Origin: a virus
Length of the DNA: 47,816 nucleotides
Reading direction: 5' to 3' (one strand)
Virus record (IMG/VR): IMGVR_UViG_3300050154_000050
Location: 1-47,816 of that record
The notes under the pieces were generated by a model that saw only the letters and a program-made list of their open reading frames with translations, was not told where the DNA came from and searched no databases. Shown here one piece after another: positions 7,961 through 45,518 of the stretch (its first letter is position 1; each line of letters opens with the position of its first letter). The translations under genes and the position numbers were made by a program.

Positions 7961-7974
7961 ATTTAACTATTACA
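7961..7974 (-). promoter_or_regulatory. 14-bp motif TGTAATAGTTAAAT (perfect copy), pointing into 7244..7945
   Basis: Plus strand ATTTAACTATTACA; 15 nt (aacGGAGttaatgaa) separate the motif from the ATG. Confidence 0.6.
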
Positions 7975-11113: not shown

Positions 11114-11117
11114 ATAA

Positions 11118-15868: not shown

Positions 15869-15882
15869 TGTAATAGTTAAAT
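15869..15882 (+). promoter_or_regulatory. 14-bp motif TGTAATAGTTAAAT (perfect copy), pointing into the 15953-19150 small-gene block
   Basis: Read directly. In this copy only, the motif lies within TTTAACT-tgtaat-AGTTAAA (7-bp inverted arms). Confidence 0.6.
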
Positions 15883-20458: not shown

Positions 20459-21791
20459 TTCGGCCCCCACTCTTGCTGGTATAGAGGCTGTCAGGAAGTT
20501 TATTCATGCTAACCCGCGCATTGCACGTGAGGCTATTGCGCGTATGTTTTCTGATAGCGAGAAAGACAAGAACGACCTGTTGCACGACTTCAAGTTGTGG
20601 GCCCGTCCAGAGCAGATTGTGGACATCCCTAGCGATATGGATACGCTATTACTGCTGTGTGGTCGTGGGTTCGGCAAAACGTGGTACGTTAGCAACAAAG
20701 CGATAGACCTTGCGCTATCAGAGTCTAATTCACGGATAGCACTATGGGCTGCTGATTATGGGTCGCTAAAGAAGGTTAACTTCCTTGGTGAGTCGGGAAT
20801 CATCTCGCAAATAAACCCCAATCTTGAATATGAGTTCAACAAATCCGACTTGATTCTAAAGTTCGCAAACGGCAGCCAAATCACCGGGTATTCTTGCGAG
20901 GCTTTGGAGCGTTCGCGCGGTAGCCAGTCGAGCCACTCAGTGGTTGATGAGTTGGCCGCATGGCAGTATGCAGAAGAAGGGCTGGAGGCGGCAAAGCTAA
21001 TCAACCGCCTTGGTAAAAACCCACTGATGTATATCGCAACAACCCCACGACCTACTGCCATCATCAAATCGTTGTGCGCTAATCCATACGTCTACACGGT
21101 GAAAGGTACAACGCACGACAACTATTTCCTAACACCTAAATATGCAGAGTCACTCAAGCGCGAACTGACAGACCGCATGTTCCGGCAGGAGTGCCTAGCT
21201 GAGATACTGGACGATAACCCGTATGCATTATGGCGCATGACAGACATTGAGTCGTGTCGTATGCACAATGTTCCGCAACTACGCCGTATTGTTGTTGGCG
21301 TTGACCCAGCAGTGAGCAGCAACGAGCTATCAGATGAAACTGGTATCGTTGTTTGCGGAATTGGCTATGATGACCGAGTTTATATTCTTGATGATTGTAG
21401 TGTCACCAGTGCCACTCCTGACCAATGGGCGCAAGCCGTTGTAGACGCTTACAATAAATGGGAAGCTGATGCGGTTATTGCTGAGGTTAACCAAGGCGGT
21501 GATATGGTTGAAACGGTTATCCTGCAAAAGTCACGCAACCTGCGAGTTATCAAGGTTAGGGCGACAAAAGGGAAGGAAGTTAGGGCTGAGCCAGTGGCAG
21601 CTATCTATGAGCGCCGTGAGTGTTCGCACGTTGGCCGATTCGATAAGCTAGAACAGCAGATGACAGAGTGGGACCCGGTTAATAGCAAGAAATCACCAGA
21701 TAGAATGGATGCTTTAGTATGGGCCGTGAGTGAATTGACAGGCATATGTCAGGAAAGTTTCGGCGCATTCCGTCCATCTGGAAGAAGATAG
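20442..21791 (+). CDS. terL: Terminase large subunit
   Basis: Walker A CGRGFGKTW, Walker B SVVDE, C-terminal nuclease-like acidic motifs (VGVDPA). Confidence 0.85.
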   Translation: MALKISSAPTLAGIEAVRKFIHANPRIAREAIARMFSDSEKDKNDLLHDFKLWARPEQIVDIPSDMDTLLLLCGRGFGKTWYVSNKAIDLALSESNSRIALWAADYGSLKKVNFLGESGIISQINPNLEYEFNKSDLILKFANGSQITGYSCEALERSRGSQSSHSVVDELAAWQYAEEGLEAAKLINRLGKNPLMYIATTPRPTAIIKSLCANPYVYTVKGTTHDNYFLTPKYAESLKRELTDRMFRQECLAEILDDNPYALWRMTDIESCRMHNVPQLRRIVVGVDPAVSSNELSDETGIVVCGIGYDDRVYILDDCSVTSATPDQWAQAVVDAYNKWEADAVIAEVNQGGDMVETVILQKSRNLRVIKVRATKGKEVRAEPVAAIYERRECSHVGRFDKLEQQMTEWDPVNSKKSPDRMDALVWAVSELTGICQESFGAFRPSGRR

Positions 21792-21810
21792 CCGCTAAAT
21801 AGCGGCTTTT
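21790..21810. terminator. Shared bidirectional hairpin between terL and antisense cassette A
   Basis: AGCCGCT-aaat-AGCGGCT followed by TTTT. Confidence 0.7.
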
Positions 21811-21977
21811 GCATTTCTCCAAACTTCCCAGTCGTGTTCGAGATAGCACTTTGCCTTACCTTGGTATGTTGCGTAGTGAACTGAGTCACTACGATGCTTT
21901 GACAGTTCAATATTGAATAATTTATGTTTTGCTGCAAACCATAGCTCGAATTTGTCGCGTTCTGAATACATAATCAA
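21795..21977 (-). CDS. Hypothetical protein (cassette A)
   Basis: 60-aa track ORF; 4-nt overlap with the upstream gene. Confidence 0.5.
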   Translation of the reverse strand: MIMYSERDKFELWFAAKHKLFNIELSKHRSDSVHYATYQGKAKCYLEHDWEVWRNAKAAI

Positions 21978-22252
21978 TCCCCCACAAACTCACCAGATTC
22001 TTTACCTGCATACGGACTGACATCGCCAGTGTGGCGCTTGGCTTTGTTTTCTTCCCATAGCTTCGTGTAAAAATCGTTATCGCGCTTTTCTCGCTGACTA
22101 CGCTCAAGCAATACCGCTGCTTTGCGTTGTCGGCAAGCTTCTTGGTATTTGTCTGTGAACAGTTCGCCTGATTTTATGGAAGCAATGACATCTTGTTTTG
22201 ACGGCATATTAATTACCCATCCTTGGCATTTTACCTGACGGAGTGCGCTCAC
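21974..22252 (-). CDS. Hypothetical protein (cassette A; likely start ATG 22207)
   Basis: Track ORF; the internal ATG follows TAAT after the upstream stop. Confidence 0.5.
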   Translation of the reverse strand: MSALRQVKCQGWVINMPSKQDVIASIKSGELFTDKYQEACRQRKAAVLLERSQREKRDNDFYTKLWEENKAKRHTGDVSPYAGKESGEFVGD

Positions 22253-22355
22253 ATTTCATGCACCACTCGTTCCAATACGCTTGCCCTACGCGGAAATATT
22301 CTGCTTCCTTTATTTCACGGCAGCGCATACATTGTTTCATACCTTTTTTAATCAT
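22209..22355 (-). CDS. 48-aa zinc-ribbon-like protein (cassette A; below the track cutoff)
   Basis: MIKKGMKQCMRCREIKEAEYFRVGQAYWNEWCMKCERTPSGKMPRMGN with CxxC...CxxC; TGATG coupling to the upstream ORF. Confidence 0.45.
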   Translation of the reverse strand: MIKKGMKQCMRCREIKEAEYFRVGQAYWNEWCMKCERTPSGKMPRMGN

Positions 22356-22528
22356 CACTTAACCTCCTGAATAATAACCCTGTCGCCTTGTGAGTTTTTC
22401 ATGATTGTGACGTTGTGGCATTGTAGTGCCACATCATAATTATTCAGCCCGTTTAATTTATCTCTGAACGTGCTAATTCCGAAGCCGTATTCAATGCCAT
22501 AACGATTAATGAATGTTCGCTTGTACAT
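22355..22528 (-). CDS. Hypothetical 57-aa protein (cassette A; below the track cutoff)
   Basis: ATG 22528 two nt after the upstream stop; MYKRTFINRYGIEYGFGISTFRDKLNG... Confidence 0.45.
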   Translation of the reverse strand: MYKRTFINRYGIEYGFGISTFRDKLNGLNNYDVALQCHNVTIMKNSQGDRVIIQEVK

Positions 22529-22530
22529 AA

Positions 22531-22815
22531 CTATTTAACTCCACATTCAGATTCAACAATCTTAATCAACCGATGGATATAAGCCAACGGCAACGCCTGC
22601 GACATTGCACCTACTAGAATCTTTCTAGTTCGCTCACCTTGAAAGCGTTTAAGCATGTGACCACAAGCTTTGCGCACTGCTGTGTTAGGCTTATCAGCGT
22701 TAAGTTCAGCAGCCATCAGGCAGGTTAGCAGCATGGATCGGAATTCCTCCGATTCTATGCGCTTCATTTCTGGTGTATCAGAGGCGTAGGTGATTGGTAG
22801 TGCAAGATTTACCAT
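22531..22815 (-). CDS. Hypothetical protein (first gene of cassette A)
   Basis: 94-aa track ORF; GGAGATACAAC-ATG; 15 nt downstream of a motif copy. Confidence 0.55.
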   Translation of the reverse strand: MVNLALPITYASDTPEMKRIESEEFRSMLLTCLMAAELNADKPNTAVRKACGHMLKRFQGERTRKILVGAMSQALPLAYIHRLIKIVESECGVK

Positions 22816-22830
22816 GTTGTATCTCCATCT

Positions 22831-22844
22831 ATTTAACTATTACA
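22831..22844 (-). promoter_or_regulatory. 14-bp motif TGTAATAGTTAAAT (perfect copy), pointing into cassette A
   Basis: Plus strand ATTTAACTATTACA; 15 nt (agatGGAGatacaac) to the ATG. Confidence 0.6.
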
Positions 22845-22915
22845 TACATAGTATAGCCACTATTCACACCATGCAAGCCATATCACCACTAAAATGCTAA
22901 AATAAATCATTCCAC

Positions 22916-24340
22916 ATGGGAGCAAGAAAGATGGACAAAGAGATTATCGTCAACCGCGCAAAGCAAATGCTGGCGGCAAACGCGCAACAATACACGCGCG
23001 CAACATTACCCGGGTGGCTGCCCGGGCAAGACAATAAACATGACAGGCTATATAAAGTGTTTGGGTTGCCTGAGCAGCTAACATTCCAAGCCAAGAAAAA
23101 CCTGTATGACCGCAATGGTTTCGTTAAAGGCGCGATTGATAAGCTGTGCGGTAAAGTATGGCAGGATAGCCCTGAGATTGTTGAAGGAAGCGGAGAAGAG
23201 GCGAAAGACCGCAAAGAAACGCCAACAGAGAAAGAATTTGCAGCATTCGCTAAGCGTACAAAGTTATGGCGATGTTTCTCTATGGCCGATAAGTACCGCA
23301 TGGTTGGCAACTACTCAGCGCTTATCTTGCGAATCGCGGATGGTAAAGATTGGTCGCTGCCAGTTGACGGTTTAACGCCTGACAAGATTGTCGGATTCTA
23401 CCCTGTATGGGAAGACCAACTGAAAGTTAGCTCGACCGATACGGACCGCATGAGCGATACCTACGGAGAGCCATTACTGTGGACTTATCATGAAACAATC
23501 AACTTTGACCAATCGATGAATACCCGCGTCAAGCCGGTAGACATCACCATTCACCGGGACCGTATTTTTTATCTTGGTGATGTATTCACAGATGGGTTGT
23601 CGTCGGAAGGCGGGAACAACATGCTGGCATCGGCTTACAACTCTGCTTTCGCGCTATTCAAGCTAAATCAATCCGGCGCTGAGGGTTTCGCTAAAAACTC
23701 TATGCGGCAGATTCATGCAAACTTCGATAAAGACGCAAAAATAAGAGAAATAGAAAGAGACCTAAAACTCAATCCAAATGAAAGTCTAGCAGATTACTTT
23801 CAGGGGATGGGGGAGGACTTAAACAAATACCTAGATGCATTCGTAGTCACGCAAGGTGTAGACATGACGGCTTTGTCAGTGTCCATGCCGGCCATTGCCG
23901 AGTTCGCGCAATGGAACATGAACGAGTTCTGCGCGGCACTTGGCGGCATTCCATCTACTGAGCTAACCGGAACGCTAACAGGCGATAGAGCAAGCACTGA
24001 GAATGGCAAGGTAATGGCAATGCTTGCGGATGGGCGGCGCAACCAAGTGCTGAATAATGACATCTTGGATTTTGTCGCATTCTTGCAAGGCCTAGGCTGC
24101 TGGACTGGTAAAGAGTTCGACACTTCATGGCCTGACTTATTGGTTCCGTCACCACTTGAAAAGGTGCAGCTCGCTATCGCTATGGCAGATGCTAACAGTA
24201 AATCGTTAACAGGTGCAGGACTGCTGTTTGATGCCAATGAAATGCGCGTCGCTGGTGGATATGAGCCGGATGCAGATACTGACCTGCAAAAAGAAGTAGA
24301 CGGAATGATTAAAGAGGACGCTATTGACGCGGTGAAGTAA
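22916..24340 (+). CDS. Portal protein (start possibly ATG 22931 behind GGAG)
   Basis: 474-aa ORF following the terminase block; DUF1073-type portal-like composition; call rests on synteny. Confidence 0.7.
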   Translation: MGARKMDKEIIVNRAKQMLAANAQQYTRATLPGWLPGQDNKHDRLYKVFGLPEQLTFQAKKNLYDRNGFVKGAIDKLCGKVWQDSPEIVEGSGEEAKDRKETPTEKEFAAFAKRTKLWRCFSMADKYRMVGNYSALILRIADGKDWSLPVDGLTPDKIVGFYPVWEDQLKVSSTDTDRMSDTYGEPLLWTYHETINFDQSMNTRVKPVDITIHRDRIFYLGDVFTDGLSSEGGNNMLASAYNSAFALFKLNQSGAEGFAKNSMRQIHANFDKDAKIREIERDLKLNPNESLADYFQGMGEDLNKYLDAFVVTQGVDMTALSVSMPAIAEFAQWNMNEFCAALGGIPSTELTGTLTGDRASTENGKVMAMLADGRRNQVLNNDILDFVAFLQGLGCWTGKEFDTSWPDLLVPSPLEKVQLAIAMADANSKSLTGAGLLFDANEMRVAGGYEPDADTDLQKEVDGMIKEDAIDAVK

Positions 24341-24346
24341 AGGTAA

Positions 24347-24364
24347 AGCCCCAAGGATGGGGCT
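24347..24364. terminator. Shared hairpin between the portal gene and antisense cassette B (weak U-tract)
   Basis: AGCCCC-aaggat-GGGGCT. Confidence 0.45.
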
Positions 24365-24593
24365 AGTCTGCGATGAAGTATTGCGCTTTTTGTGATACTA
24401 GAAAATCGCGAGCAAATTCAATAGGCATTCTCGCTTTGTATTCGCAGTCATAGTCGGGGTTGTTTTTACTTATCACGTAAATAACTGTCGGTTCCATTCT
24501 GTTTATTTCATAAACGACAGAGTTTATGCTTTCATTTTTTTGATAAACCGCCACAAACTGCCCGCAAGTTGGCATTCCTGAGACTTGTTTCAT
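24363..24593 (-). CDS. Hypothetical protein (cassette B)
   Basis: 76-aa track ORF; 4-nt overlap with the upstream gene. Confidence 0.5.
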   Translation of the reverse strand: MKQVSGMPTCGQFVAVYQKNESINSVVYEINRMEPTVIYVISKNNPDYDCEYKARMPIEFARDFLVSQKAQYFIAD

Positions 24594-24916
24594 TCTTCCA
24601 CCTTATATCCTGCTGATGTGATTGCTTCCTTGCATTCATTATAGGATTCTGAATACCCGGTATCGTAATCTCCATCTACAATTACCAACTTATGAGGTAA
24701 CTTAATCGCCTTCATGCTTTCGCGTGATGCTTTCCATCCCATCCATGCGGAATCAACCCAAGACATTTTGTAATATCCAGACGCATTTTGAAGCAGAACT
24801 TTGTTTTTACAATGATAATTAATTTCATCGCAGTAGCTAACCAACCACGCCTCAAACTCCTCTCTACATTTGTCCATTTTTAATAACCTCGCAATCAACA
24901 ATAATAAAACCATCAT
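24590..24916 (-). CDS. Hypothetical protein (cassette B; likely start ATG 24877)
   Basis: Track ORF; MDKCREEFEAWLV... begins behind GAGG. Confidence 0.5.
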   Translation of the reverse strand: MMVLLLLIARLLKMDKCREEFEAWLVSYCDEINYHCKNKVLLQNASGYYKMSWVDSAWMGWKASRESMKAIKLPHKLVIVDGDYDTGYSESYNECKEAITSAGYKVEE

Positions 24917-25271
24917 ACTTAACTTCTTTTAGCGTGTGGTTTTTAATAAACATTGGTACACCAGCTGTCACGGATGGGTCTCCGTGACCAGCCGCCGATG
25001 TCTTGTCTGCCATGATGCAAATGTGCCATTCATCATTAATCTTGCATATGAAGTTACCGGTCAAATTAACCTTCTTGTCGTTTTTATCGCGCCACTCACC
25101 AGACGGCCACCAAGTGCTATGCCACTTAATTAGCATTTTTAACTCCTTCTTCATAACCTTTGCACCAACTTGTAACAACTTGTAACAACTACCGCCGTTA
25201 AAGCCATCATAACGGCGCAGTAAACCAGATAATATGTAATTGCTGTTGCTATCATTTGCGCATCCTATCAT
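24864..25271 (-). CDS. Hypothetical protein (cassette B; probable true start ATG 25136)
   Basis: AAGGAG lies 6 nt before ATG 25136; the 45 N-terminal codons of the track ORF span a 10-bp tandem repeat and look non-coding. Confidence 0.5.
   Translation of the reverse strand: MIGCANDSNSNYILSGLLRRYDGFNGGSCYKLLQVGAKVMKKELKMLIKWHSTWWPSGEWRDKNDKKVNLTGNFICKINDEWHICIMADKTSAAGHGDPSVTAGVPMFIKNHTLKEVKYDGFIIVDCEVIKNGQM
25166..25190. repeat. Tandem 10-bp repeat TGTAACAACT x2.4 carrying TTGTaACAA palindromes one helical turn apart
   Basis: 25171-25180 equals 25181-25190, with a partial unit at 25166-25170. Confidence 0.8.
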
Positions 25272-25280
25272 AAAAACCTG

Positions 25281-25294
25281 ATTTAACTATTACA
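25281..25294 (-). promoter_or_regulatory. 14-bp motif TGTAATAGTTAAAT (perfect copy), pointing into cassette B
   Basis: Plus strand ATTTAACTATTACA. Confidence 0.6.
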
Positions 25295-25315
25295 CAAAAA
25301 CACACTATCAACAAG

Positions 25316-25324
25316 TGATATAAT
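25316..25324 (+). promoter_or_regulatory. Extended -10 promoter TGaTATAAT for the head-morphogenesis gene
   Basis: TATAAT at 25319-25324, exactly 24 nt from the motif; followed by GAAAAAA, as at 46359. Confidence 0.5.
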
Positions 25325-26285
25325 GAAAAAAAGTTTTCAGGGCTACCAGATGGCAAACGTATCAATAAAAGACCCGACATTTCAAGCTGGCAGAATAGTA
25401 AAGGCGTATGGTGAATTTAAACGTAGGCTCACCCGCATCAAGAAAGAGGTTACTGCCGTTTATGAGTCACTAAAGCCTATCGAGACTGCATCGAATACGC
25501 GCTCATACTTTCTCAACGCAGAGAAGACCTATCTGTATGAAATCGACTTGAACGAAATCCTACGGCTGAATGAAACCATCGATGCGCTGATAGAAAAAAT
25601 CATGATGGATGATAATGACCAGCCTAAAGATAACTGGTTTTTTAGTGGGTACACTGAGGCCGCATACGAGCAAGGCACAGGCTACGCTCAAGCATTCATT
25701 AGCCAGCAGGCTGATAGTTATGCTCGGACATACCAAAACTTGCATCAGGTGTTGTTCAGTCAGCCATATCAACGTCGTATTGGTATTGTGTCAGCCCGAA
25801 CGTTTAACGAAATGCGCGGGTTTACCGATGACGTGACAAAGCAGGCGCGGTTCATTCTTGGTGAAACTATCGCGCGCGGGAAGTCGCCTAAGTGGGCAGT
25901 GTCTCAGCTATCGGAAGCCATCGATGGTGATAAGAAGCGCGCACTACGCATCGCGCGCACGGAAATGGGTGTATCATTCCGCTCTGCCGTCATGGATGAG
26001 TCAGCTCAGGCCGCGAGACAGTTTGAGCTGAAGATGAAGATGTTGTGGGTTAGCGCACTGATACCAGGTAGGACAAGAAAATCGCACGCTGAGCGGCATG
26101 GATTGCTATACACACAGAAAGAAGTTAATGACTTTTATGCAGTGGACGGGAATGCCATACACTGTTTGTGCTCAATTGTCCCCACTGTCGTCAACGAAAA
26201 AGGCGAGGCGCTCGCTAAAAACCTCATCGCTAAAATGCAGAAGCAGGAAGAAGCGTGGATTGCTAGCGGTGGCGGGGTTAAATAG
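25323..26285 (+). CDS. Head morphogenesis protein (SPP1 gp7 / Mu F-like); start may be ATG 25350
   Basis: C-terminal IARTEMGVSFR...HAERHG...HCLCS resembles the gp7/F family; ATG 25323 overlaps the predicted -10. Confidence 0.7.
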   Translation: MKKSFQGYQMANVSIKDPTFQAGRIVKAYGEFKRRLTRIKKEVTAVYESLKPIETASNTRSYFLNAEKTYLYEIDLNEILRLNETIDALIEKIMMDDNDQPKDNWFFSGYTEAAYEQGTGYAQAFISQQADSYARTYQNLHQVLFSQPYQRRIGIVSARTFNEMRGFTDDVTKQARFILGETIARGKSPKWAVSQLSEAIDGDKKRALRIARTEMGVSFRSAVMDESAQAARQFELKMKMLWVSALIPGRTRKSHAERHGLLYTQKEVNDFYAVDGNAIHCLCSIVPTVVNEKGEALAKNLIAKMQKQEEAWIASGGGVK

Positions 26286-26287
26286 AT

Positions 26288-26305
26288 AAGGCCCGCAAGG
26301 GCCTT
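26288..26305. terminator. Shared bidirectional hairpin between the head gene and antisense cassette C
   Basis: AAGGCCC-gcaa-GGGCCTT. Confidence 0.65.
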
Positions 26306-26308
26306 ACT

Positions 26309-27019
26309 TTATTCGGACATAATTCTGTTTTTTGCTATCTCGAAATACTTATCGTCCATCTCGATACCGATGAATTTGCGGTTTAGGTTTTTTGCTGCTA
26401 CACCTGTTGTGCCTGAGCCAATAAATGGATCAAATATCACAGATTCAATAACTGAATGGTTAATAATGAATTTTTCCATTAAATCTACAGGCTTGCATGT
26501 TGGATGCCCATACTCATTTTTATCTTTCTTGTTTATAGGTGACGTAAAAACCATACTTTTTGATTCATAACTACCTAATATCTTTGATTTTTTACCTTTT
26601 ATGTAAATCCAATACTCAACATCGTTTAGATATTTACAATTACATAGTGGAGTTGGATTTGTTTTGTTCCACACACCAATACCGTATTGATATCCGTTAT
26701 CCTCAGCAAATGAGATATACATGTGCAATTGCTTTGTAGAGCAAGTAAACACGCAGCAAAAATGTTGTTTAGTTTTAAACAGGCGTTTTGATTGTTCAAT
26801 AAATTTATTGAAGTTAAAACCATTAACCATATCCATCGAGTTAACTTCTTGCATAAACTCTCTGTTATCGCGGCCCATCATTCCTCCGCCTTTGCTCTTT
26901 GATAACTCATATGGCGGGTCAGTCAAAATCATATCAACAGTACCACTTTCAATTTCTTTCATTCTTTCTAAGCAGTCGCCTTTCATTAGCCACATTGTTT
27001 CTGTTTTAATATCGCTCAT
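26309..27019 (-). CDS. DNA methyltransferase (beta-class N6-adenine/N4-cytosine)
   Basis: Motif IV ILTDPPY precedes motif I FDPFIGSGTTGVAA; visibly AT-rich gene. Confidence 0.8.
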   Translation of the reverse strand: MSDIKTETMWLMKGDCLERMKEIESGTVDMILTDPPYELSKSKGGGMMGRDNREFMQEVNSMDMVNGFNFNKFIEQSKRLFKTKQHFCCVFTCSTKQLHMYISFAEDNGYQYGIGVWNKTNPTPLCNCKYLNDVEYWIYIKGKKSKILGSYESKSMVFTSPINKKDKNEYGHPTCKPVDLMEKFIINHSVIESVIFDPFIGSGTTGVAAKNLNRKFIGIEMDDKYFEIAKNRIMSE

Positions 27020-27705
27020 TTCTTTTCTATCCTCGCAAACGTAACTGTTTCTGCATACTTTGTGACGCGATCTTTGGCTAATATGTAAATCTCCTTATAT
27101 GGAAACTTTCGCTCCATCCCTTCTTTAATGGCCGCTCTGCACACTTGTTCTGCTGCTTGCAGAAAGCACAAGTCAAGAAGGTCAAGCGTGTCACGGAATC
27201 CGCTAGGAACTTTCTCTTTGCTTTGTATCAACTCAAGCGCTGCATACTCCATTTTTGTGATGTTCATATAGTATTTTGACGCACTGCCTGAACCTTGGTC
27301 TGTGGCGTAGTCTACAAAATCTTTAATGGTGTCAGTTACATTGCGCCTGACTTCTTTGCTTTGAATGCGCGCTTGTTTCCATTCCAGTTTGTCATCATCT
27401 TTCTTTAATTGAGCCTCCATTGCGCTAAAAGCATTAATGTACGCCTCTTTCCATTTTGCAGCCTCTGAGCCAGTGAATCCCATACACAAGAAAGAGAATC
27501 CATCTCGTGTCATCATGAAGCTGTCGTATGTATGCCCCCTCACGACATAATTTGACTGCGCAAAATGGCGCATCATAAACTCATCGCTGCACTCAAGATT
27601 ATCTATTGCCCTCATAACATCACGATGAATCTTTCCGAATTTTTTTGATACTAGTACGCTATCAACCATCGGAACGCCATTAGTTAAAACAACCAAATCA
27701 TTCAT
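27016..27705 (-). CDS. Rha family phage regulatory protein
   Basis: N-terminal VDSVLVSKKFGKIHRDVMRAIDNL...FLCMGFTG matches the Rha signature. Confidence 0.75.
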   Translation of the reverse strand: MNDLVVLTNGVPMVDSVLVSKKFGKIHRDVMRAIDNLECSDEFMMRHFAQSNYVVRGHTYDSFMMTRDGFSFLCMGFTGSEAAKWKEAYINAFSAMEAQLKKDDDKLEWKQARIQSKEVRRNVTDTIKDFVDYATDQGSGSASKYYMNITKMEYAALELIQSKEKVPSGFRDTLDLLDLCFLQAAEQVCRAAIKEGMERKFPYKEIYILAKDRVTKYAETVTFARIEKK

Positions 27706-27716
27706 GTTAATTCCTT

Positions 27717-27731
27717 ATGTAAAATTTACAT
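27717..27731. promoter_or_regulatory. Perfect 15-bp palindrome ATGTAAA-a-TTTACAT upstream of rha (operator candidate)
   Basis: 7-bp arms read directly; 11 nt upstream of ATG 27705. Confidence 0.5.
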
Positions 27732-27884
27732 GATAATTGTAGTTTATATTGGCCAAGAAAACAACGAAACATAAAAGCGTTTAAACACTCTTCAACAAGC
27801 AATTTTCACCGTCACGATAAACAAAACCAATTCACGTTTGAAACGTAAGACGGCCGACATTTCGGCGCTCCTAAATTCAACACA

Positions 27885-27908
27885 CAAAAAAGGCGCACTA
27901 AGCGCCTT
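27885..27908 (-). terminator. Intrinsic terminator after dut (leftward)
   Basis: Minus strand AAGGCGC-ttagt-GCGCCTT followed by TTTTT. Confidence 0.7.
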
Positions 27909-27933
27909 ACCATTATGCTAATACCGGCGGCAT

Positions 27934-28362
27934 CTATCTTCCACTACTCCCAAATCCACCATCACCACGCTCGCTGTCGCTTAATTCCGTTACCTCTTCA
28001 AATGTAACTACCGGCACAGGAATAAGCATGGCTTGTGCGATGCGGTCGCCGACTTTAGGCACGTATTGAATCTGGCGGTCACAGGTTAGCTTTACCATTA
28101 GCTGGCCGCGATAGCCTGAGTCGATAACACCTACGCAATTAGACAGGCGCATATTGTTTTTGAAGCCATGACCAGAGCGGCTATAAATCATCATGGCGTA
28201 ACCTCGTGGTACTTCTACTGACAAGCCAGTATCGCATAGATACATTCCACCAAAATTATCGTTGACGCCATCAGCATACAAATCAAAACACGCATCACCG
28301 TCATGTGCGTAGGTTGGCAGCTTTGCTGTATCCGTGAGGAGCTTTACTTTTAGATTAATCAT
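27934..28362 (-). CDS. dut: dUTP diphosphatase (trimeric dUTPase)
   Basis: Motifs GDACFDL, SRSG, GVIDSGYRG and C-terminal RGDGGFGSSG. Confidence 0.9.
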   Translation of the reverse strand: MINLKVKLLTDTAKLPTYAHDGDACFDLYADGVNDNFGGMYLCDTGLSVEVPRGYAMMIYSRSGHGFKNNMRLSNCVGVIDSGYRGQLMVKLTCDRQIQYVPKVGDRIAQAMLIPVPVVTFEEVTELSDSERGDGGFGSSGR

Positions 28363-28820
28363 TTGCTTAAAAACTCCTTTATGTCATCAACTGAAATGCT
28401 GAACTCTATAACGTAAGAATTAATTCCGACTTCAAGGTTATTATCGTTATCTTCATATTTAACGGGTATGTAGTATTTCTTTGATTCTTTTTTGTAATTC
28501 GGGTCGTAAATGCTCCAATTACCATCTGGATCAACCTCCATCAGCACCATGTGAGTGCCGCCTTCGACGTTCAAGCTTGGCACTATCAAGCCATAAACGG
28601 TGTTGTAGTCAATGTTTTTTGGTGAAAAATCAGCGTACATCCTTTCTACTATCAGGCCCTTACTATGCAGGTATTCGGCGCATGTTATGTTGCATTCGGT
28701 GTAGTATTTTTCGTGAAACTCATTAATCACCTCCTCAACCGGCACACATAATATCATGGACATGCAGGTGCTTACGCAAGTTATTGGCGTTGGTTGTACT
28801 TGTTGTTTTATTAGCATCAT
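28359..28820 (-). CDS. Stand-alone papain-like cysteine peptidase, C39-like
   Basis: Q-x5-C (QPTPITCVSTCMSMIL), GGTHMVLMEV and WSIYDPNY give a Q/C/H/D arrangement as in C39 peptidase domains. Confidence 0.55.
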   Translation of the reverse strand: MMLIKQQVQPTPITCVSTCMSMILCVPVEEVINEFHEKYYTECNITCAEYLHSKGLIVERMYADFSPKNIDYNTVYGLIVPSLNVEGGTHMVLMEVDPDGNWSIYDPNYKKESKKYYIPVKYEDNDNNLEVGINSYVIEFSISVDDIKEFLSK

Positions 28821-29422
28821 TCCCCGCCTTTTGTTGGTACTGATAATTCACCAGATAGAATTGAGTCGTAAACACTGCGCAAATGCGATTTCAGTCTTTG
28901 CTTCTCACCTTCAGATGTTCCTCCAAAAATACATGTATTACCATATGCGCTATCAACCCACTCGTTACGCAAACGCTCTGCCTTTTCTTCTGGTGTTTCT
29001 AGTGGGCGAATTGATTCAATTACAAGCTGAGTTGTATAACGTGTTCGTCTGTTGTAAACGGCAACACACATACCACCATTACCACCACACACATGAGCTA
29101 GAACATCAAGAATATCTCCACTTTCGAACTCCTCTATTGGCTCGTAGTAATTAAATTCATTATTGAAAACAAACTCAACATTAGCCCCCACCTCTGGCAA
29201 CCGCCCAGCCTTTTGGTCTTCAACCGTCCAGCGTTTAGGTTCTTGGATGATGCGGCGCATGGCGCAAACTGGGTGATTTCTCAATGACTCAGGAGTTAAA
29301 TCAGATGATCTTGCGTAAGACTTAATCCCACTAGCAATACTATGAACAACAACATCTAAACCGGTAAAAGTTCCAGCTCCATCGAACAATTCTTGGTTAC
29401 CAAACACTGCTTCATATTTCAT
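28817..29422 (-). CDS. Hypothetical protein (cassette C)
   Basis: 201-aa track ORF; 4-nt overlap with the peptidase gene. Confidence 0.55.
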   Translation of the reverse strand: MKYEAVFGNQELFDGAGTFTGLDVVVHSIASGIKSYARSSDLTPESLRNHPVCAMRRIIQEPKRWTVEDQKAGRLPEVGANVEFVFNNEFNYYEPIEEFESGDILDVLAHVCGGNGGMCVAVYNRRTRYTTQLVIESIRPLETPEEKAERLRNEWVDSAYGNTCIFGGTSEGEKQRLKSHLRSVYDSILSGELSVPTKGGE

Positions 29423-29648
29423 TATTTATCTCCTAAATTATCAACATCACTACGAACGAAAATTACATCGCGGTTGTCTTTGCGTTCATGGCGCCCGCAT
29501 GGCGGAACATTTCTGTAATCACTGCCAATTGTACACATCCCATACGCGCTACTTAAATCACAATTCCTGCATCCATCCTGCATCCATCCTGCTCAACAGC
29601 GATATACCACAAGCCATCATGCTTGAACTTGCTCTCTGTGTAGTTCAT
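29422..29648 (-). pseudogene. Small 4-Cys (zinc-ribbon-like) gene frameshifted by an 11-bp tandem duplication
   Basis: The ORF from ATG 29648 stops after 31 codons. Removing one 11-nt unit restores a 71-codon ORF ending in TAATG on the next gene start (227-11=216 nt). Confidence 0.5.
29565..29591. repeat. Tandem duplication CATCCATCCTG x2 plus a partial third unit
   Basis: 29570-29580 equals 29581-29591; 29565-29569 repeats the unit end. Confidence 0.9.
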
Positions 29649-29650
29649 AT

Positions 29651-29824
29651 CTACTCCCACTCATCCGGCGACATAATGCGGTTTGGGTTGATTACTTCAA
29701 AGTGTGATTCATCTAGTGTTCTATGAACACCTAATACACACCAGTCTTTGCAGCAATCATCGAAAAATGCCACCTCCCAATCTCCGCCATATTTCACCCA
29801 ATAAAACCCACTTTTACGCTCCAT
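29651..29824 (-). CDS. Hypothetical 57-aa protein (cassette C; below the track cutoff)
   Basis: MERKSGFYWVKYGGDWEVAFFDDCCKDWCVLGVHRTLDESHFEVINPNRIMSPDEWE; GGAG before the ATG. Confidence 0.45.
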   Translation of the reverse strand: MERKSGFYWVKYGGDWEVAFFDDCCKDWCVLGVHRTLDESHFEVINPNRIMSPDEWE

Positions 29825-29839
29825 CTTTAATCTCCTTAA

Positions 29840-30046
29840 TCAGAAAAATAACCCCATAAAAGAGCCAACAGGAACAGCAATAATGCCTACAGCTCTAACA
29901 ACAAGTAATCCCGTTATGTTGCCAAAATCGCTATTAACAACATTTATGCAGTTTATAATCCATCCGTAAATGCAGATTAACCACATCATAATTACAAAGA
30001 TTGCCAGTTTTACCGGCGTTCCTGAACTTCGTTTTTTACTTAACAT
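29840..30046 (-). CDS. Small membrane protein (2 TM helices)
   Basis: LAIFVIMMWLICIYGWII and LLVVRAVGIIAVPVGSFMGLFF. Confidence 0.5.
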   Translation of the reverse strand: MLSKKRSSGTPVKLAIFVIMMWLICIYGWIINCINVVNSDFGNITGLLVVRAVGIIAVPVGSFMGLFF

Positions 30047-30233
30047 CTTTAATCTCCTTAACTGCTAATTTACGTTGTGCGCGTTTTGCGCGGTGATATG
30101 CCACTGCACACGAACCTTTCTTGCAAAACTTGCGAGGGTTGCTATTTGGTAAGTAACTAAACTCCTCACCACACCAATCGCATGGCTTTGTCATAATCTG
30201 TGAATCTGGAATGTGAACCATTTTGCATCTCAA
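30036..30233 (-). CDS. Small Cys-rich basic protein (likely start ATG 30221); first gene of cassette C
   Basis: CDWC...CKKGSC plus a basic tail HRAKRAQRK; the track start is TTG. Confidence 0.5.
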   Translation of the reverse strand: MRCKMVHIPDSQIMTKPCDWCGEEFSYLPNSNPRKFCKKGSCAVAYHRAKRAQRKLAVKEIKDVK

Positions 30234-30257
30234 TTTGTAATCATTAAACCTAGTGTA

Positions 30258-30271
30258 AGTTAACTATTACA
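30258..30271 (-). promoter_or_regulatory. 14-bp motif variant TGTAATAGTTAACT (1 mismatch), pointing into cassette C
   Basis: Plus strand AGTTAACTATTACA. Confidence 0.55.
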
Positions 30272-30285
30272 TGATTGCAAGTGGT

Positions 30286-30314
30286 TTGCATTAATATTTG
30301 TTTAGGTTTATAAT
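30286..30314 (+). promoter_or_regulatory. Near-consensus sigma70 promoter TTGCAT-17-TATAAT
   Basis: Hexamers at 30286-30291 and 30309-30314; upstream of 30348. Confidence 0.7.
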
Positions 30315-30347: not shown

Positions 30348-31073
30348 ATGACAAACGAAAAAACAACAATCCAAAATGTGGGACATTGCTATGCCATTGA
30401 GTTCGACAATGGAACAGTGAAGATTGGCAAAACAATAAATCCATCAGCGAGATTTAATACTCATAGGTCATCAGCAAAAAAATTTGGCGTGTCAGTGGTT
30501 AAGGCAATCATATCAATGTCTATTCCGTTTCATGATGAGATGGAAGAAAAACTGCTTAGCGATGCCAGTTCGATTTGTACAATAACAAATTCAAAAGAGT
30601 ATTTCACTGGCATTACCATAGACGATTGCTGTGAGCTTTTTAGACGCAATGGCGTCGGATACGTGAAGGTTTTCGACATCGTGAAAACAGATAAATACGG
30701 AAGAATAATGATGTATGTAGACCTTGAACAGAAAATAAGCAATGAGTATCTAATAAACAAAAAAGAAGAATGTAACAATAAATCAGAAAGCACACCACTT
30801 GGTGTATGCAAAAGTAAGATAATCAAATTCTTGCTAAACAGCGATGAGTCATTATCACCAAGTGTTATAGCTCAGAGAGTTAGAAGTAGATACCAGAACA
30901 TAGATGATAGCGTCATCAACCAGTCCATGCTTGATCTAACAATTGACGGAATAGTCTCATCAGAGATGATTGAGCACGCAAAGACAAAACTGAAGTCAAA
31001 GAGATACTTTATAGGAGCAACAAAAGAGCGAGAGGCAAAACTTTACTTAATTGAAAAATCTAATATAATTTAG
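30348..31073 (+). CDS. T5orf172 (GIY-YIG-related) domain protein with C-terminal wHTH-like region
   Basis: N-terminal HCYAIEFDNGTVKIGKTINPSARFNTHR fits the T5orf172 signature; AT-rich; has its own promoter and terminator. Confidence 0.6.
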   Translation: MTNEKTTIQNVGHCYAIEFDNGTVKIGKTINPSARFNTHRSSAKKFGVSVVKAIISMSIPFHDEMEEKLLSDASSICTITNSKEYFTGITIDDCCELFRRNGVGYVKVFDIVKTDKYGRIMMYVDLEQKISNEYLINKKEECNNKSESTPLGVCKSKIIKFLLNSDESLSPSVIAQRVRSRYQNIDDSVINQSMLDLTIDGIVSSEMIEHAKTKLKSKRYFIGATKEREAKLYLIEKSNII

Positions 31074-31428: not shown

Positions 31429-31647
31429 ATGTTCATTCAACTCACACAAGAACAGATGCGACAAGATAGCGGGGATGGCCTTCTACGCTGCGCCTGCACG
31501 ATTGCAAGCAGTTACGGCATAGAGAACTTCATTGAATACACGGAACCGCGCACAGTGCTTGTGGCTGGCGTTAAATGTCATGCTGTTTTTGATTACGTTC
31601 GGCGCGGCGTTGAGTTTGTGGCTTGCAAAGATGAGAAAGTGGTGTAA
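31429..31647 (+). CDS. Hypothetical protein
   Basis: Track ORF 31390..31647 trimmed to ATG 31429, because 31390 lies inside the predicted -10. Confidence 0.45.
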   Translation: MFIQLTQEQMRQDSGDGLLRCACTIASSYGIENFIEYTEPRTVLVAGVKCHAVFDYVRRGVEFVACKDEKVV

Positions 31648-31656
31648 TAATTAAAT
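31643..31656 (+). promoter_or_regulatory. 14-bp motif variant TGTAATAATTAAAT (1 mismatch), pointing toward the tRNAs and head genes
   Basis: Read directly; overlaps the stop codon of 31429..31647. Confidence 0.5.
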
Positions 31657-32010: not shown

Positions 32011-32085
32011 TGCACTGTAGCTTAAGGTAAAGCGGTCTGGCTCATAACCGGAAATACTCAGGTTCGATACCTGTCAGTGCAACCA
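32011..32085 (+). tRNA. tRNA with anticodon CAT (Met, or Ile2 if lysidine-modified)
   Basis: Acceptor TGCACTG/CAGTGCA, anticodon stem TCTGG/CCGGA, loop CTCATAA, T-loop TTCGATA, CCA encoded. Non-standard 2-nt D/anticodon junction and a U-U at the top of the T-stem. Confidence 0.75.
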
Positions 32086-32091
32086 AATAAC

Positions 32092-32165
32092 GCGAGTGTA
32101 ATTCAGTGGCAGAACTGGCGACTTCCAATCGTTACGCGTGAGTTCGATTCTCACCACTCGCTCCA
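32092..32165 (+). tRNA. tRNA-Gly (anticodon TCC)
   Basis: Acceptor GCGAGTG/CACTCGC, anticodon loop CTTCCAA, T-arm GTGAG-TTCGATT-CTCAC, CCA encoded. Confidence 0.85.
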
Positions 32166-32268
32166 AATTAGACAGCGCCCTCTGCATTTGTACGGCGCTG
32201 TTACCACATCTGCAACATCCCGTCATTCCATGCTAAAATATCACCAGTCTAGACAACTGGTATTAATC

Positions 32269-33711
32269 ATGATTAAGAAAATCAAAGGTAAATTCGAGCT
32301 ATACAGCAAAGATGGCACAAAACATCTTGGTAGCTTTGATACGAAAGAAGCCGCTCAGGCTCGTGAAGATGAAATCAATAAAATCAAACACGCGAAAGAA
32401 CCCACTGGAAATCAGCTACTGGTTAACATCTCTACGCTGGTTGACAATTCAGCAATCCGCACAGAAACGATTGAGGGCGTAGAGTTTACTGTCCTGCCGT
32501 CGAAGACATTGCCGAAAGACATAGTTATGAACGGAATCATGTACCCTGCTGATGAAGTTAAGCGCACCATCGACACGTTAAACATGACGCCTGTTACGCT
32601 TGGCCACCCGGTAGTTAATGGAAAGTTTGCTGATGCTTACGACATGATGAGTCAAGCAAAGCACGGCTTATCAGGCGCGTTCAACAAGGTGACGGGGCAA
32701 GCACAAGATGGTAGTTGGCTGGTGGATAAATACATCCCTACCGAAGCGCTGCAAAACTCTACCCGCGGTAAGATTGTTGCGAATGCTATCGACAAGAAAC
32801 AGCCAATTCACACATCAACTGGCGTGTACCTGTCTCGCGTACCCGAACTTGGCACAAATGCTGCCGGGCAAGAATACGAATATAAAGCCAATATCGATAC
32901 ATTCAACCACGATGCCATTCTAGTCGGTGAAATCGGCGCGGCAACTCCAGAGCAGGGTGTGGGTATTTTCGTGAATGCGGATGGTGAGCAAGAAGTCGAT
33001 GTGATGTATTGCAATCTTAATTTGTCATCTGGCGACGATTACTCAATGAGCGCTGAAACCATAAAGGAAATGCTGGAAGAGGCGGCAAAGCAGGCTTTCT
33101 GTCCAGATATGCATGATTGCAAGTGCGAAGTGGAAGACTTTACAGATTCATCTGTCATTGTTGAGTGCATGGATAGAAAATATAAAACATCATATTCAAT
33201 CGATGGCGATAAAGCCGCGCTGTCTGGTGACGTGTATGAAGTTAAGGAAAAATACACTTTCACACAGAAAGTTGGCAAAATTATCAGCAAATTAACTTCT
33301 TTTGTAAAAAGTGATACAATGGATGGCGAAAGTGGTGATATGCCACCAATGCCTATGAATAACAGCCGTGAGGGCGACCAAGTGGAAAAACAAGAAGTTC
33401 AACAAATGATTGCGGATGCTCTCGCGGTAAACGCAGAACAAACCGCAAAAACTGTGCAGGATGCTGTAACCTCTGCACTGGCTGCAAACAAAACAGCTAC
33501 CGAGCAAGCTGAAAAAGACGGCCTGATTCAGCAAGTGGTTAACGCAAAACTGTTGCCAGAAGACGCAGCAAAAGAATGTGGTATCACTGCATTGCGTGCC
33601 ATGATTGCTAATCAGAAGCAACCGGCTTTCGGTCTGAATGCTAATCGTGTGGCTGGCGGCGATGATGAATTCGCGGGCTATGATTTCAACGCCATGATGG
33701 AGACTAAATAA
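32269..33711 (+). CDS. Prohead protease/scaffolding protein (DUF2213-like, putative)
   Basis: Track ORF 32077.. trimmed to ATG 32269, since the upstream part covers the tRNAs; coiled-coil Q/A/E-rich C-terminal half; sits upstream of the capsid genes. Confidence 0.55.
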   Translation: MIKKIKGKFELYSKDGTKHLGSFDTKEAAQAREDEINKIKHAKEPTGNQLLVNISTLVDNSAIRTETIEGVEFTVLPSKTLPKDIVMNGIMYPADEVKRTIDTLNMTPVTLGHPVVNGKFADAYDMMSQAKHGLSGAFNKVTGQAQDGSWLVDKYIPTEALQNSTRGKIVANAIDKKQPIHTSTGVYLSRVPELGTNAAGQEYEYKANIDTFNHDAILVGEIGAATPEQGVGIFVNADGEQEVDVMYCNLNLSSGDDYSMSAETIKEMLEEAAKQAFCPDMHDCKCEVEDFTDSSVIVECMDRKYKTSYSIDGDKAALSGDVYEVKEKYTFTQKVGKIISKLTSFVKSDTMDGESGDMPPMPMNNSREGDQVEKQEVQQMIADALAVNAEQTAKTVQDAVTSALAANKTATEQAEKDGLIQQVVNAKLLPEDAAKECGITALRAMIANQKQPAFGLNANRVAGGDDEFAGYDFNAMMETK

Positions 33712-41126: not shown

Positions 41127-41129
41127 CAT

Positions 41130-41147
41130 AAGCCCCGAAAGGGGCTT
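41130..41147. terminator. Shared bidirectional hairpin between the major tail gene and antisense cassette D
   Basis: AAGCCCC-gaaa-GGGGCTT. Confidence 0.7.
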
Positions 41148-41289
41148 AGTTTAATTTAAAGTTTTCAAGCTCAGATAAGTCAATGTCATTTTGTTCTACA
41201 GCATCAAAATGATAAACATCAATACCTTCATTACATTCAGATTTAATAACCGCTAAATCTTCTTCATATCCCAAGAATGTTAATTCCAT
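41146..41289 (-). CDS. 47-aa highly acidic protein (cassette D; below the track cutoff)
   Basis: GGAGATACAAA-ATG; MELTFLGYEEDLAVIKSECNEGIDVYHFDAVEQNDIDLSELENFKLN has 13 D/E against 2 K and 0 R. Confidence 0.55.
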   Translation of the reverse strand: MELTFLGYEEDLAVIKSECNEGIDVYHFDAVEQNDIDLSELENFKLN

Positions 41290-41320: not shown

Positions 41321-41334
41321 ATTTAACTATTATA
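41321..41334 (-). promoter_or_regulatory. 14-bp motif variant TATAATAGTTAAAT (1 mismatch), pointing into cassette D
   Basis: Plus strand ATTTAACTATTATA; 31 nt to ATG 41289. Confidence 0.55.
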
Positions 41335-41372: not shown

Positions 41373-41381
41373 TGATAAAAT
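41373..41381 (+). promoter_or_regulatory. Extended -10 promoter TGaTAAAAT restarting tail gene transcription
   Basis: TG at 41373-41374 and TAAAAT at 41376-41381; upstream of 41412. Confidence 0.5.
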
Positions 41382-44521: not shown

Positions 44522-45000
44522 TGGCAATAGTCGCCTATCCTGAAAACGTACCACTGCCATTATTGACTGAAACTAGCCGCTCACAGGCGGCTACGTTTCG
44601 CGCATATCAGCCGCTAGCAGGGCCTATGCGCATCAAAAAGACATCCAGTGATGCGCCAGTGCAATATGATATCGCGTGGCGCATGTCACGACTTGGCGCG
44701 CAACGGTTTACGGCGTGGTTTTATAATCCAGATGGATTAAATCAAGGCAGAAACACGTTTACGGTAAAACTGAACACTGAGTTTGGATTACTTGACCACA
44801 CTGTGCAACTATTGCCAGACAGCCTTGTTCCATGTACTACAGAAGGCTCTACTGTTTACAGTTATACAGCATCAGGTATTGTTCGAGCGTTACCGATTCC
44901 ACAGGTTTACTTTGACCATTACGACCTTTTGCAGTCAGATTACTACACGCAAGCAGGGCTGTTTGACTTGATTGTTAATGATTATTTGCCGATTATTTAG
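44521..45000 (+). CDS. Minor/distal tail protein (gpM position)
   Basis: 159 aa immediately after the tape measure gene; call rests on synteny. Confidence 0.45.
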   Translation: MAIVAYPENVPLPLLTETSRSQAATFRAYQPLAGPMRIKKTSSDAPVQYDIAWRMSRLGAQRFTAWFYNPDGLNQGRNTFTVKLNTEFGLLDHTVQLLPDSLVPCTTEGSTVYSYTASGIVRALPIPQVYFDHYDLLQSDYYTQAGLFDLIVNDYLPII

Positions 45001-45009: not shown

Positions 45010-45495
45010 ATGACATCAAACGCCACAATCTGGACAACAGCAAATCCAGTCATGGAGTTCGATACTATGATGATAAGTCATAGCTCGTTCGACCCTGTTT
45101 ATGTTGTTTTTAATCAGTACGACAAGGTTACGCTAAACGGTAACGAATACTTGCCCTGTTACGGCGAGATAACCTATCCAGTCGTTGACGGTGAAACTAC
45201 GCCAGAAGTCACGGTCGATATGGCTCGCGCATTGGTTGGTGATGAAATCGAGACACTCATTAAATCCATTCCGCCGTGGAAACGAATGGTTGAGCCTGTC
45301 ATTGCGACATTCCAACATTGGTCAGAAGAAAATGGCGGCACGTTAATGTTTGGTTATGAGCTGAATATCAGCAACGAAGGCGTCTCCATGTCAATTGATT
45401 CAGTGACAATCAAGGCGCAAAAGTTAAACCAAATGACGCGATCAGTGGCTAGATTGTATGAAATCACTGAATGGCCGGGCTTGCAGAATACATAA
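45010..45495 (+). CDS. Minor tail protein (gpL/DUF1833-like)
   Basis: 161 aa; sits between the gpM-like and gpK-like genes. Confidence 0.45.
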   Translation: MTSNATIWTTANPVMEFDTMMISHSSFDPVYVVFNQYDKVTLNGNEYLPCYGEITYPVVDGETTPEVTVDMARALVGDEIETLIKSIPPWKRMVEPVIATFQHWSEENGGTLMFGYELNISNEGVSMSIDSVTIKAQKLNQMTRSVARLYEITEWPGLQNT

Positions 45496-45500: not shown

Positions 45501-45518
45501 AAGCCCCGGTAGGGGCTT
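45501..45518. terminator. Shared bidirectional hairpin between the tail gene and antisense cassette E
   Basis: AAGCCCC-ggta-GGGGCTT. Confidence 0.7.

Follow-up and report, generated by a model that had tools for sequence, protein, structure and literature searches.

Two kinds of described system come closest to the organization reported here. Morons, of the HK97 gene 15 type (Juhala/Hendrix), are stretches of accessory DNA that lie between otherwise adjacent virion genes, carry their own promoter and terminator and deviate in GC content (PMC3594210); usually, though not by strict definition, a repressed prophage expresses them and the lysogen profits. In T4-type phages, promoter-early stem-loop (PeSL) elements, each made up of a sigma-70-like promoter and a stem-loop, are repeated around non-essential ORFans in hyperplastic regions (PMC2839356, PMC4122927). 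Insertions, deletions and replacements end in these motifs, which act both as expression signals and as portable homology (PMC2839356, PMC4122927). A further trait of PeSL elements is that recombination between motifs gives rise to excised mini-circles. We analysed the virus genome held in the IMG/VR record IMGVR_UViG_3300050154_000050 over its whole stretch of 47,816 nucleotides (the window), in which the plus-strand virion genes are interrupted by five minus-strand gene blocks, cassettes A to E, each lying between a GC-rich hairpin and a copy of a 14-bp motif. With a probability of roughly 0.7, these inserts are moron-type accessory cassettes that occupy fixed, hyperplastic intergenic slots, are built from the standard transcription signals of the phage and are exchanged via their arms.

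A first-pass annotation of the window had placed antisense blocks between virion genes at five sites, and a check of the open reading frames (ORFs) found all of them there. Their cargo is as follows.

21795..22815, minus strand: cassette A cargo, five small genes (60, 92, 49, 57 and 94 aa); GC 0.431.
24363..25271, minus strand: cassette B cargo, three genes without assigned function (76, 108 and 135 aa); GC 0.399.
26309..27705, minus strand: cassette C distal unit, an N6/N4 DNA methyltransferase and a Rha regulator.
27736-27764, minus strand: promoter-like site before Rha, TTGTTT (27759-27764)-17-TACAAT (27736-27741).
27890..27908, minus strand: predicted internal terminator of cassette C, AAGGCGCTTAGTGCGCCTT followed by a T-run.
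27934..30233, minus strand: cassette C proximal unit, a dUTPase, a phrog_4049 protein, a 201-aa protein and four small genes.
41146..41289, minus strand: cassette D cargo, a single acidic 47-aa gene; GC 0.278.
45527..46297, minus strand: cassette E cargo, a single AT-rich 256-aa gene; GC 0.327.

Owing to the internal terminator at 27890-27908 and the separate promoter-like site before Rha, cassette C is taken to comprise at least two units. The anatomy of the cassettes is observed directly, as is their contrast in GC content (0.278-0.431, against 0.445-0.482 for the flanking virion genes). The cargo of cassette A includes NinD-like and DUF7740 proteins. Among the functions proposed for cassette C by the first-pass annotation, the methyltransferase, Rha and dUTPase were confirmed, while the label of C39-like peptidase for 28359..28820 was left without profile support: searches of Pfam (E values up to 10), PDB sequences and PHROG annotation returned no match to such a peptidase. 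The 153-aa product of this gene (28359-28820, minus strand; phrog_4049) contains the pattern Q-x5-C ... G-G-T-H-M-V-L-M ... D-P, which looks papain-like by eye, and its single-sequence AlphaFold model (pLDDT, the predicted local distance difference test, of 37) is unusable. The PADLOC, PDB-sequence and relaxed Pfam searches returned nothing for the cargo of cassettes B, D and E. The identities of the flanking genes terS, terL, head morphogenesis (Mu F), major tail and minor tail were upheld, and that of the portal gene comes from tblastn. Chance or an ORF-calling artefact as the source of the pattern is ruled out by the enrichment of the motif, by cargo that is conserved or matched to families and by arms that are kept in about 40 relatives.

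The 3' end of every cassette abuts a GC-rich hairpin, as had been noticed from the sequence (five of five, at 21790, 24347, 26287, 41129 and 45501). The stems are GC-rich, span 7-9 bp and close on a tetraloop; they are stable on both strands (-12 to -17 kcal/mol) and begin 0-6 nt beyond the stop codon of the preceding plus-strand gene, a placement consistent with a terminator-like role for both converging transcripts.

21790..21807, both strands: hairpin A, at the terL stop codon; -12 kcal/mol on each strand, with the better U-tract on the plus strand.
24347..24364, both strands: hairpin B, 6 nt past the portal stop codon and overlapping the stop codon of the last cargo gene.
26287..26306, both strands: hairpin C, directly past the head-morphogenesis stop codon; -16 to -17 kcal/mol.
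41129..41148, both strands: hairpin D, directly past the stop codon of the major tail protein gene.
45501..45518, both strands: hairpin E, 5 nt past the stop codon of the minor tail gene 45010..45495; good U-tract on the minus strand.

At its 5' end each of the five cassettes is headed by the 14-bp motif TGTAATAGTTAAAT, here called class I, which is exact at 22831, 25281 and 46321 and has one mismatch at 30258 and 41321. With up to two mismatches allowed, the window contains eight copies against 0.84 expected, a number reached in none of 100 shuffles. The five copies that head cassettes are listed here with their surroundings.

22831..22844, minus strand: class I motif of cassette A, TGTAATAGTTAAAT, followed by a shared leader and the Shine-Dalgarno (SD) sequence AGATGGAGATA.
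25281..25294, minus strand: class I motif of cassette B, with a -35-like TTGTTG at 25309-25314.
30258..30271, minus strand: class I motif of cassette C, variant TGTAATAGTTAACT.
41321..41334, minus strand: class I motif of cassette D, variant TATAATAGTTAAAT, with a -35-like TTGCGG 17 bp upstream of AATAGT.
46321..46334, minus strand: class I motif of cassette E, TTTACA-18-AATAGT with TG.

The window was compared with 26 IMG/VR loci (L001-L011, L015-L027, plus L028, a duplicate of the L001 contig), with 19 metagenome loci (L029-L047) and with two cultured Aeromonas phages, phiA005 (L013) and 4_L372X; IMG/VR scans with the capsid and 37960 genes gave one locus each, and slot usage across 32-41 kb is thinly sampled in the relatives. 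The slots themselves are deeply conserved. All 23 relatives covering slot A have its head motif, and all 15 reaching slot B have that of slot B; slot C is filled in every relative reaching it and slot D in four of four, and hairpin A is kept in relatives as the left arm of slot A. Even in phiA005 and 4_L372X, with a portal that is 50% identical, the order is terL, minus block, portal, minus block, head morphogenesis, minus block. The portal gene adjoins the head-morphogenesis gene in ES18 and Oslo, which are distant and have a related portal.

Between these arms, which stay conserved, the cargo is often unrelated from genome to genome, with 24 protein clusters in slot A, 18 in B, 51 in C, five in D and eight in E. 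Arm conservation and the swapping of cargo are direct observations. At least nine different first genes stand downstream of the common TGTAATAGTTAAAT-AGATGGAGATA arm of slot A, where the gene content of relatives is mosaic; in three of them an additional gene has been inserted, precisely at 22818-22820. The boundaries of slots B, C and D show the same behaviour; the 47-aa protein of slot D is conserved in L016 and L020 and is replaced by other cargo in L015 and L018. At slot E, homology to the window stops on the left at 45522-45531, just beyond the hairpin, and restarts on the right at 46291-46318, just ahead of the motif, with at least five different cargos between identical arms (other cargo in L015, L018, L020, L021 and L023). 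Filled and empty versions of the same site are also seen. In L016, L017, L022, L025 and L026 the stop codon of 45010..45495 is followed by 10 nt (GGAATGCACC) and then the ATG of gene 46390, at a place where the window has the hairpin, cargo, motif, a TATAAT and a new ribosome-binding site (RBS); at the junction between 44521..45000 and 45010..45495 the window has a bare 9-nt spacer and L022 and L019 have a cassette of identical grammar. Cassettes are thus present, absent or swapped in relatives with breakpoints at hairpin and motif, which was the comparison that the first-pass annotation had proposed, and the swapped cargo between conserved arms supports its suggestion of modular cargo exchange.

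Further observations were made at individual slots. In L024 (3058-3705) slot E is occupied by a forward Rha-like gene; a TATAAT immediately follows the stop codon upstream, and the ancestral RBS is preceded by a strong terminator. Slot E therefore takes cargo in either orientation. L019 contains tandem copies of the 45010..45495 homologue (24-537 and 1356-1845), and behind each copy come a hairpin and a reverse cassette, which differs between the two copies; the duplication could have arisen by unequal exchange between cassette arms or could be a metagenome assembly chimera. Slot E of phiA005 (36694-36825) holds a well-formed minus-strand TTGACA-N14-TGTAATAGT and no annotated gene, which could represent what is left of an emptied cassette, a very short ORF or a small antisense RNA. 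At slot B, the residues YFIAD and the stop codon of the hairpin-proximal gene (24365-24385) are kept among otherwise divergent or different genes, which indicates that the left recombination arm reaches into the coding 3' end. L011 (754-7775) continues past a portal fragment (86-92% identical) into about 7 kb of minus-strand genes, none of them related to the window, and this block is either a giant slot B cassette or another genome arrangement. The terminase module is mosaic (21690-21791; L002, L006, L009, L010 and L008): the terL of several relatives is about 41% identical or unrelated, and homology resumes 30-100 bp before the terL stop codon and takes in the hairpin and the first cassette gene. 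Beside cassette C, the plus-strand gene 30348-31073 (GC 0.358) is weakly T5orf172/GIY-YIG-like; it is absent in L027 and about 35% identical in other relatives and is therefore itself a variable forward cassette.

Blocks that are present or absent exactly from stop to start codon at two junctions might suggest enzyme-driven mobile elements, integron-, transposon- or homing-endonuclease-like, that target intergenic junctions, and weak HNH, endonuclease VII and GIY-YIG-like matches do occur in a few small cargo or neighbouring proteins. These matches are marginal (E values of 7e-4 to 5e-3), inconsistent in position and lacking in cassettes B, D and E. Neither target-site duplications nor terminal inverted repeats are found when filled and empty sites are compared, and Pfam and PHROGs detect no integrase, transposase, recombinase, CI repressor, sigma factor or RNA polymerase in the complete genome. 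With neither enzyme nor target duplication, a transposon, integron or homing element was rejected, and we regard the whole class of explanation as very improbable.

The signals that make up the arms are not peculiar to the cassettes. The first-pass annotation had treated the motif, the hairpins and the promoters that restart virion transcription as hallmarks of the cassettes; they turn out to be the transcription punctuation of the phage genome as a whole. Three of the eight motif copies lie elsewhere.

7961..7974, minus strand: class I motif within the early/lysis arm.
15869..15882, plus strand: class I motif heading the nin-like small-gene block that leads to terS/terL.
31643..31656, plus strand: class I motif TGTAATAATTAAAT, about 370 nt upstream of tRNA-Met/tRNA-Gly.

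About 13 strong intergenic hairpins occur genome-wide, and those at 3876, 19170, 19893, 31213, 35181 and 37885 follow units free of cassettes. A cassette-specific signal is ruled out by these copies of the motif, by the many hairpins and by the class II promoters (described below) outside cassettes.

Thirty distinct contexts of the motif from the window and its relatives were aligned, and about two thirds of them show a TTGCA box 17 bp ahead of AATAGT, with TGT in the extended -10 position. A promoter scan independently calls TTGCAA-17-AATAAT and TTTACA-18-AATAGT with TG, and in phiA005 and 4_L372X the arrangement TTGAC(A/C)-N14-TGTAATAGT stands before many genes on both strands. On the best reading, the 14-mer covers -15 to -2 of an extended -10 promoter of sigma-70 type (TTGCA-N14-TGT-AATAGT). 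An RNA element was considered as well and rejected, since Rfam shows two tRNAs only and the motif lies upstream of the predicted start, hence outside the RNA. It is conceivable, but in our judgement unlikely, that the 14-mer is instead the site of a phage-encoded factor (sigma-like, an appropriator, or a Cro-like or Rha regulator) that defines a temporal class. Across the eight window copies and more than 50 from relatives, its 14 positions are near-invariant between variable flanks, the TGTAATAGT core is kept in Aeromonas phages of different host background, and ordinary TTGACA-17-TAGTAT signals serve the immediate-early divergent region (12916-13039), where the motif is absent. Against such a factor, the motif has the elements and spacing of an extended -10 sigma-70 promoter, including a -35 box at 17 bp, and is non-palindromic, unlike a typical dimeric operator; the genome-wide Pfam and PHROGs searches detected no sigma factor, RNA polymerase or known late activator.

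On the plus strand a -10 element reappears after each cassette, as the first-pass annotation had noted (five of five).

22895..22903, plus strand: predicted class II extended -10 element of the portal gene, TGCTAAAAT, with TAAAAT at 22890; kept in all relatives.
25316..25324, plus strand: predicted class II promoter of the head-morphogenesis gene, TGATATAAT, back-to-back with the motif of cassette B.
30285..30314, plus strand: promoter-like site TTTGCA-18-TATAAT before the accessory gene 30348..31073.
41373..41381, plus strand: predicted class II promoter of the chaperone/tape-measure unit, TGATAAAAT.
46359..46364, plus strand: predicted restart promoter, TATAAT, ahead of the RBS of gene 46390.

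The TATAAT at 46359 belongs to the inserted block, since 45496-46389 is wholly missing in five relatives. The class II pattern TGNTAWAAT has 15 matches in the window against 7.4 expected; 13 are on the virion strand and nine fall in the intergenic 6.8% of the genome (binomial P ~1e-7). Sites were listed at 1720, 5566 (minus strand), 22895, 25316, 32231, 35170, 37924, 38823, 38882, 40616, 41373 and 46736. They stand in front of most virion and lysis genes, directly upstream of those named tailspike, lysis, portal, head-morphogenesis, scaffold, 35221, 37960, 38909, major-tail, chaperone and distal tail, and mostly lack an obvious -35 box. Because phiA005 has the same pattern, with 11 of 11 matches on the virion strand, TGnTA(A/T)AAT may be the late promoter class of this lineage; class I motifs would fire as early or middle promoters and class II as late ones. 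Between the class II promoter of the chaperone/tape-measure unit and its start codon, in the predicted 5' leader, lies a small hairpin (41383-41402; TCGCCATGCTTTCATAGCGA) that is kept in four of four relatives.

The first-pass annotation had seen the cassettes as splitting the virion operon. Judged by its sequence motifs, the virion block instead appears as at least 11 short promoter-headed units, several of them cassette-free; as these have no cassette in front, the cassettes sit in the punctuation and do not create it.

The back-to-back promoters bear on a second alternative, a distributed antisense or promoter-competition switch in which the reverse cassettes would mainly regulate virion genes and set early-to-late timing at five sites. 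Overlapping divergent promoters would admit one RNA polymerase, and convergent transcription into the hairpins would dampen the upstream virion unit. The -35 region of class I does abut or overlap the neighbouring class II -10 element, and the -10 hexamers are 27 nt apart at B (motif B and the class II site at 25316) and at E, with near-identical promoter geometry at phiA005 17449/17478. Slots A-D are filled in every relative regardless of cargo, including the phages with a 50% identical portal, which hints at a selected position, and phiA005 slot E keeps a class I promoter without annotated cargo. However, the hairpins stand at stop codons, so that antisense RNA should seldom run into the virion gene before them; five close relatives have nothing in slot E and one has a forward moron there; a class II promoter stands equally before cassette-free virion units; and the cargo consists of real conserved proteins (methyltransferase, dUTPase and the 47-aa protein of cassette D). 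We consider it distinctly unlikely that regulation is the main role of the cassettes, and the antisense or timing control that the first-pass annotation had suggested is not supported by the present evidence. A broader, standardised docking-slot architecture evolved by a siphophage lineage, in which the terminator/promoter junctions between short virion units would receive reverse-oriented cassettes and the arms (hairpin, 14-mer promoter with SD sequence, paired restart promoter) would serve at once as expression signals, as sites that need no recombinase for exchanging cargo across the phage population and, through overlapping divergent promoters, as a distributed switch between early cargo and late virion genes, is a tentative idea that we hold to be doubtful.

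The reading of the inserts as exchangeable moron-type cassettes suggests the following mechanism. The GC-rich tetraloop hairpin at the upstream virion stop codon would end both converging transcripts. The low-GC cargo on the opposite strand would be driven by a class I promoter, TTGCAn-N14-TGT-AATAGT-TAAAT, with transcription beginning just past the 14-mer and yielding a short leader with an SD sequence. Back-to-back with it, class II (TGnTA(A/T)AAT) would start the next virion gene, and class I would drive in addition the nin-like/terminase unit, one early-arm unit and the tRNAs. Because the virion module would consist of many short promoter-to-terminator units, a reverse cassette could fit between them without starving downstream genes, and its orientation and terminator probably insulate the virion genes from cargo transcription. 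Co-infecting relatives would recombine with the arms as substrates and replace the cargo exactly between them, as suggested by hairpin and promoter arms that are conserved around cargo that is not; the Sak4-like AAA_24 protein, SSB and exonuclease of the phage could assist. Exchange may also occur between slots that have arm sequence in common, and whole blocks may be gained at new junctions. The arms of A and D share GCAAGCCATA...TGnTAAAAT, and those of B and the L022 cassette share CACTATCAA...CAAGTGnTAnAAT; the hairpins of D, E and the L022/L019 cassettes have AAGCCCCnnnnGGGGCT in common, followed by TAGTT in D, E and L019. Such shared sequence would in principle permit exchange between slots.

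Several points weigh against this reading. Many breakpoints lie at internal gene junctions inside cassettes, and the arms are thus preferred, not sole, recombination sites. Rha-like proteins are the only family found in two different slots, and the movement of cargo between slots was dropped as a proven process for that reason. Slots A-D are never empty in close relatives, and insertion there is deduced solely from the distant ES18 and Oslo. As a -10 hexamer AATAGT is weak, with its A at -12 and its G at -8, and the conservation of all 14 motif positions goes beyond plain sigma-70 needs, so a phage factor may take part. Several hairpins have a poor U-tract on one strand, and termination may be partial. 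Promoter activity, start sites, timing and terminator efficiency are deduced from sequence throughout.

Window positions 1-127 and 47690-47816 form an exact 127-bp terminal repeat, and the window therefore represents a complete, circularly assembled genome of ~47.7 kb (~47,689 bp), with a distal tail gene that spans the two ends of the window. The phage is apparently virulent and siphophage-like, encoding tape-measure, major tail and minor tail proteins, and no prophage relative was found among the 185,579 genomes of the GTDB set. The remaining features of the genome are as follows.

278-3871, plus strand: tail fibre/tailspike genes.
3885-12915, minus strand: arm with lysis genes, helicase, SSB, the Sak4-like AAA_24 protein and exonuclease.
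12916-13039: divergent early region, followed on the plus strand by a Cro/YdaS-like gene and primase and then by the nin-like small-gene block.
Virion genes, in order: terS (GP3_package), terL (Terminase_6N/6C), portal, head morphogenesis (Mu F), decoration, capsid, major tail protein, chaperone-position gene, tape measure and minor tail proteins.
32011-32085, plus strand: tRNA-Met (CAT).
32092-32165, plus strand: tRNA-Gly (TCC).

The probable true starts of the portal and head-morphogenesis genes are 22931 and 25350. The ORF 32077..33711 is over-extended across both tRNA genes, with ATG 32269 as the probable real start, and phiA005 has tRNA-Thr and tRNA-Met in the place equivalent to this tRNA pair.

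Many phage accessory genes serve counter-defence or host takeover, and how phages take up and shuffle such genes without wrecking essential operons is a long-standing question. The present system, in which the gain of additional genes by phages can be seen clearly in nature, combines filled, empty and re-filled sites with junctions resolved to the base pair and with standard regulatory arms. Dozens of natural variants come from the same metagenomes and two cultured Aeromonas phages share the layout, resources that make arm-mediated exchange and the two-class promoter scheme directly testable. The variable slots are also an obvious place in which to seek new anti-defence genes.

The two cultured Aeromonas phages, phiA005 (OM033133) and 4_L372X (MK813940; PMC6669705), share the virion order, the reverse blocks A, B and C (phiA005 also D), hairpins at stop codons, the TGTAATAGT core and TGGTA(A/T)AAT promoters; they differ in their 50% portal identity, in their cargo and in the motif tail TGTAATAGTaT... 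This organization goes unmentioned in the published account of 4_L372X (PMC6669705), and a literature search returned no description of it for 4_L372X, phiA005 or elsewhere. The first-pass annotation had been unable to assign the arrangement to a described system, yet two described concepts accommodate it: it has the structure that defines morons (PMC3594210) and is much like the PeSL cassettes of T4-type phages (PMC2839356, PMC4122927).

Judged by sequence, cassettes at slot E and at the junction between 44521..45000 and 45010..45495 match morons point by point. Extra DNA between adjacent genes is met at slot E and this minor-tail junction, and for slots A-D solely in comparison with ES18 and Oslo; base composition deviates in the cassettes, and predicted promoter and hairpin signals accompany every one of them. 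Unlike typical morons, five cassettes occur here in one genome, all reversed and all headed by one near-identical phage-wide promoter motif; the slots have been kept throughout a deep lineage, and cargo turnover in them is high; the block also brings with it the predicted restart promoter of the next virion gene. No lysogeny module is present, and the classical rationale, in which a repressed prophage expresses the moron, is therefore not applicable here.

The differences from PeSL elements lie in setting and layout. The phage is siphophage-like with a genome of 48 kb, in contrast to the T4-type myoviruses with co-oriented early genes between core blocks; its cassettes lie inside the virion module and face backwards, and promoter and hairpin stand at opposite ends of the cargo, whereas they are fused in the PeSL unit of ~100 bp. 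The likenesses concern the elements and their use. Like PeSL, the window has a repeated sigma-70-like motif (eight copies) and stable stem-loops (about 13 hairpins); five of the eight copies head variable cassettes, whose cargo mostly has no assigned function, and the endpoints of indels and replacements fall in the motifs, although also at internal junctions. Composites of terminator followed by promoter are present inside cassette C of L002, L008 and L010 (the 27890 hairpin, then class I) and in the window itself, where hairpin 37885 is followed by TGATATAAT at 37924 and TGTTAAAAT at 35170 lies beside hairpin 35181.

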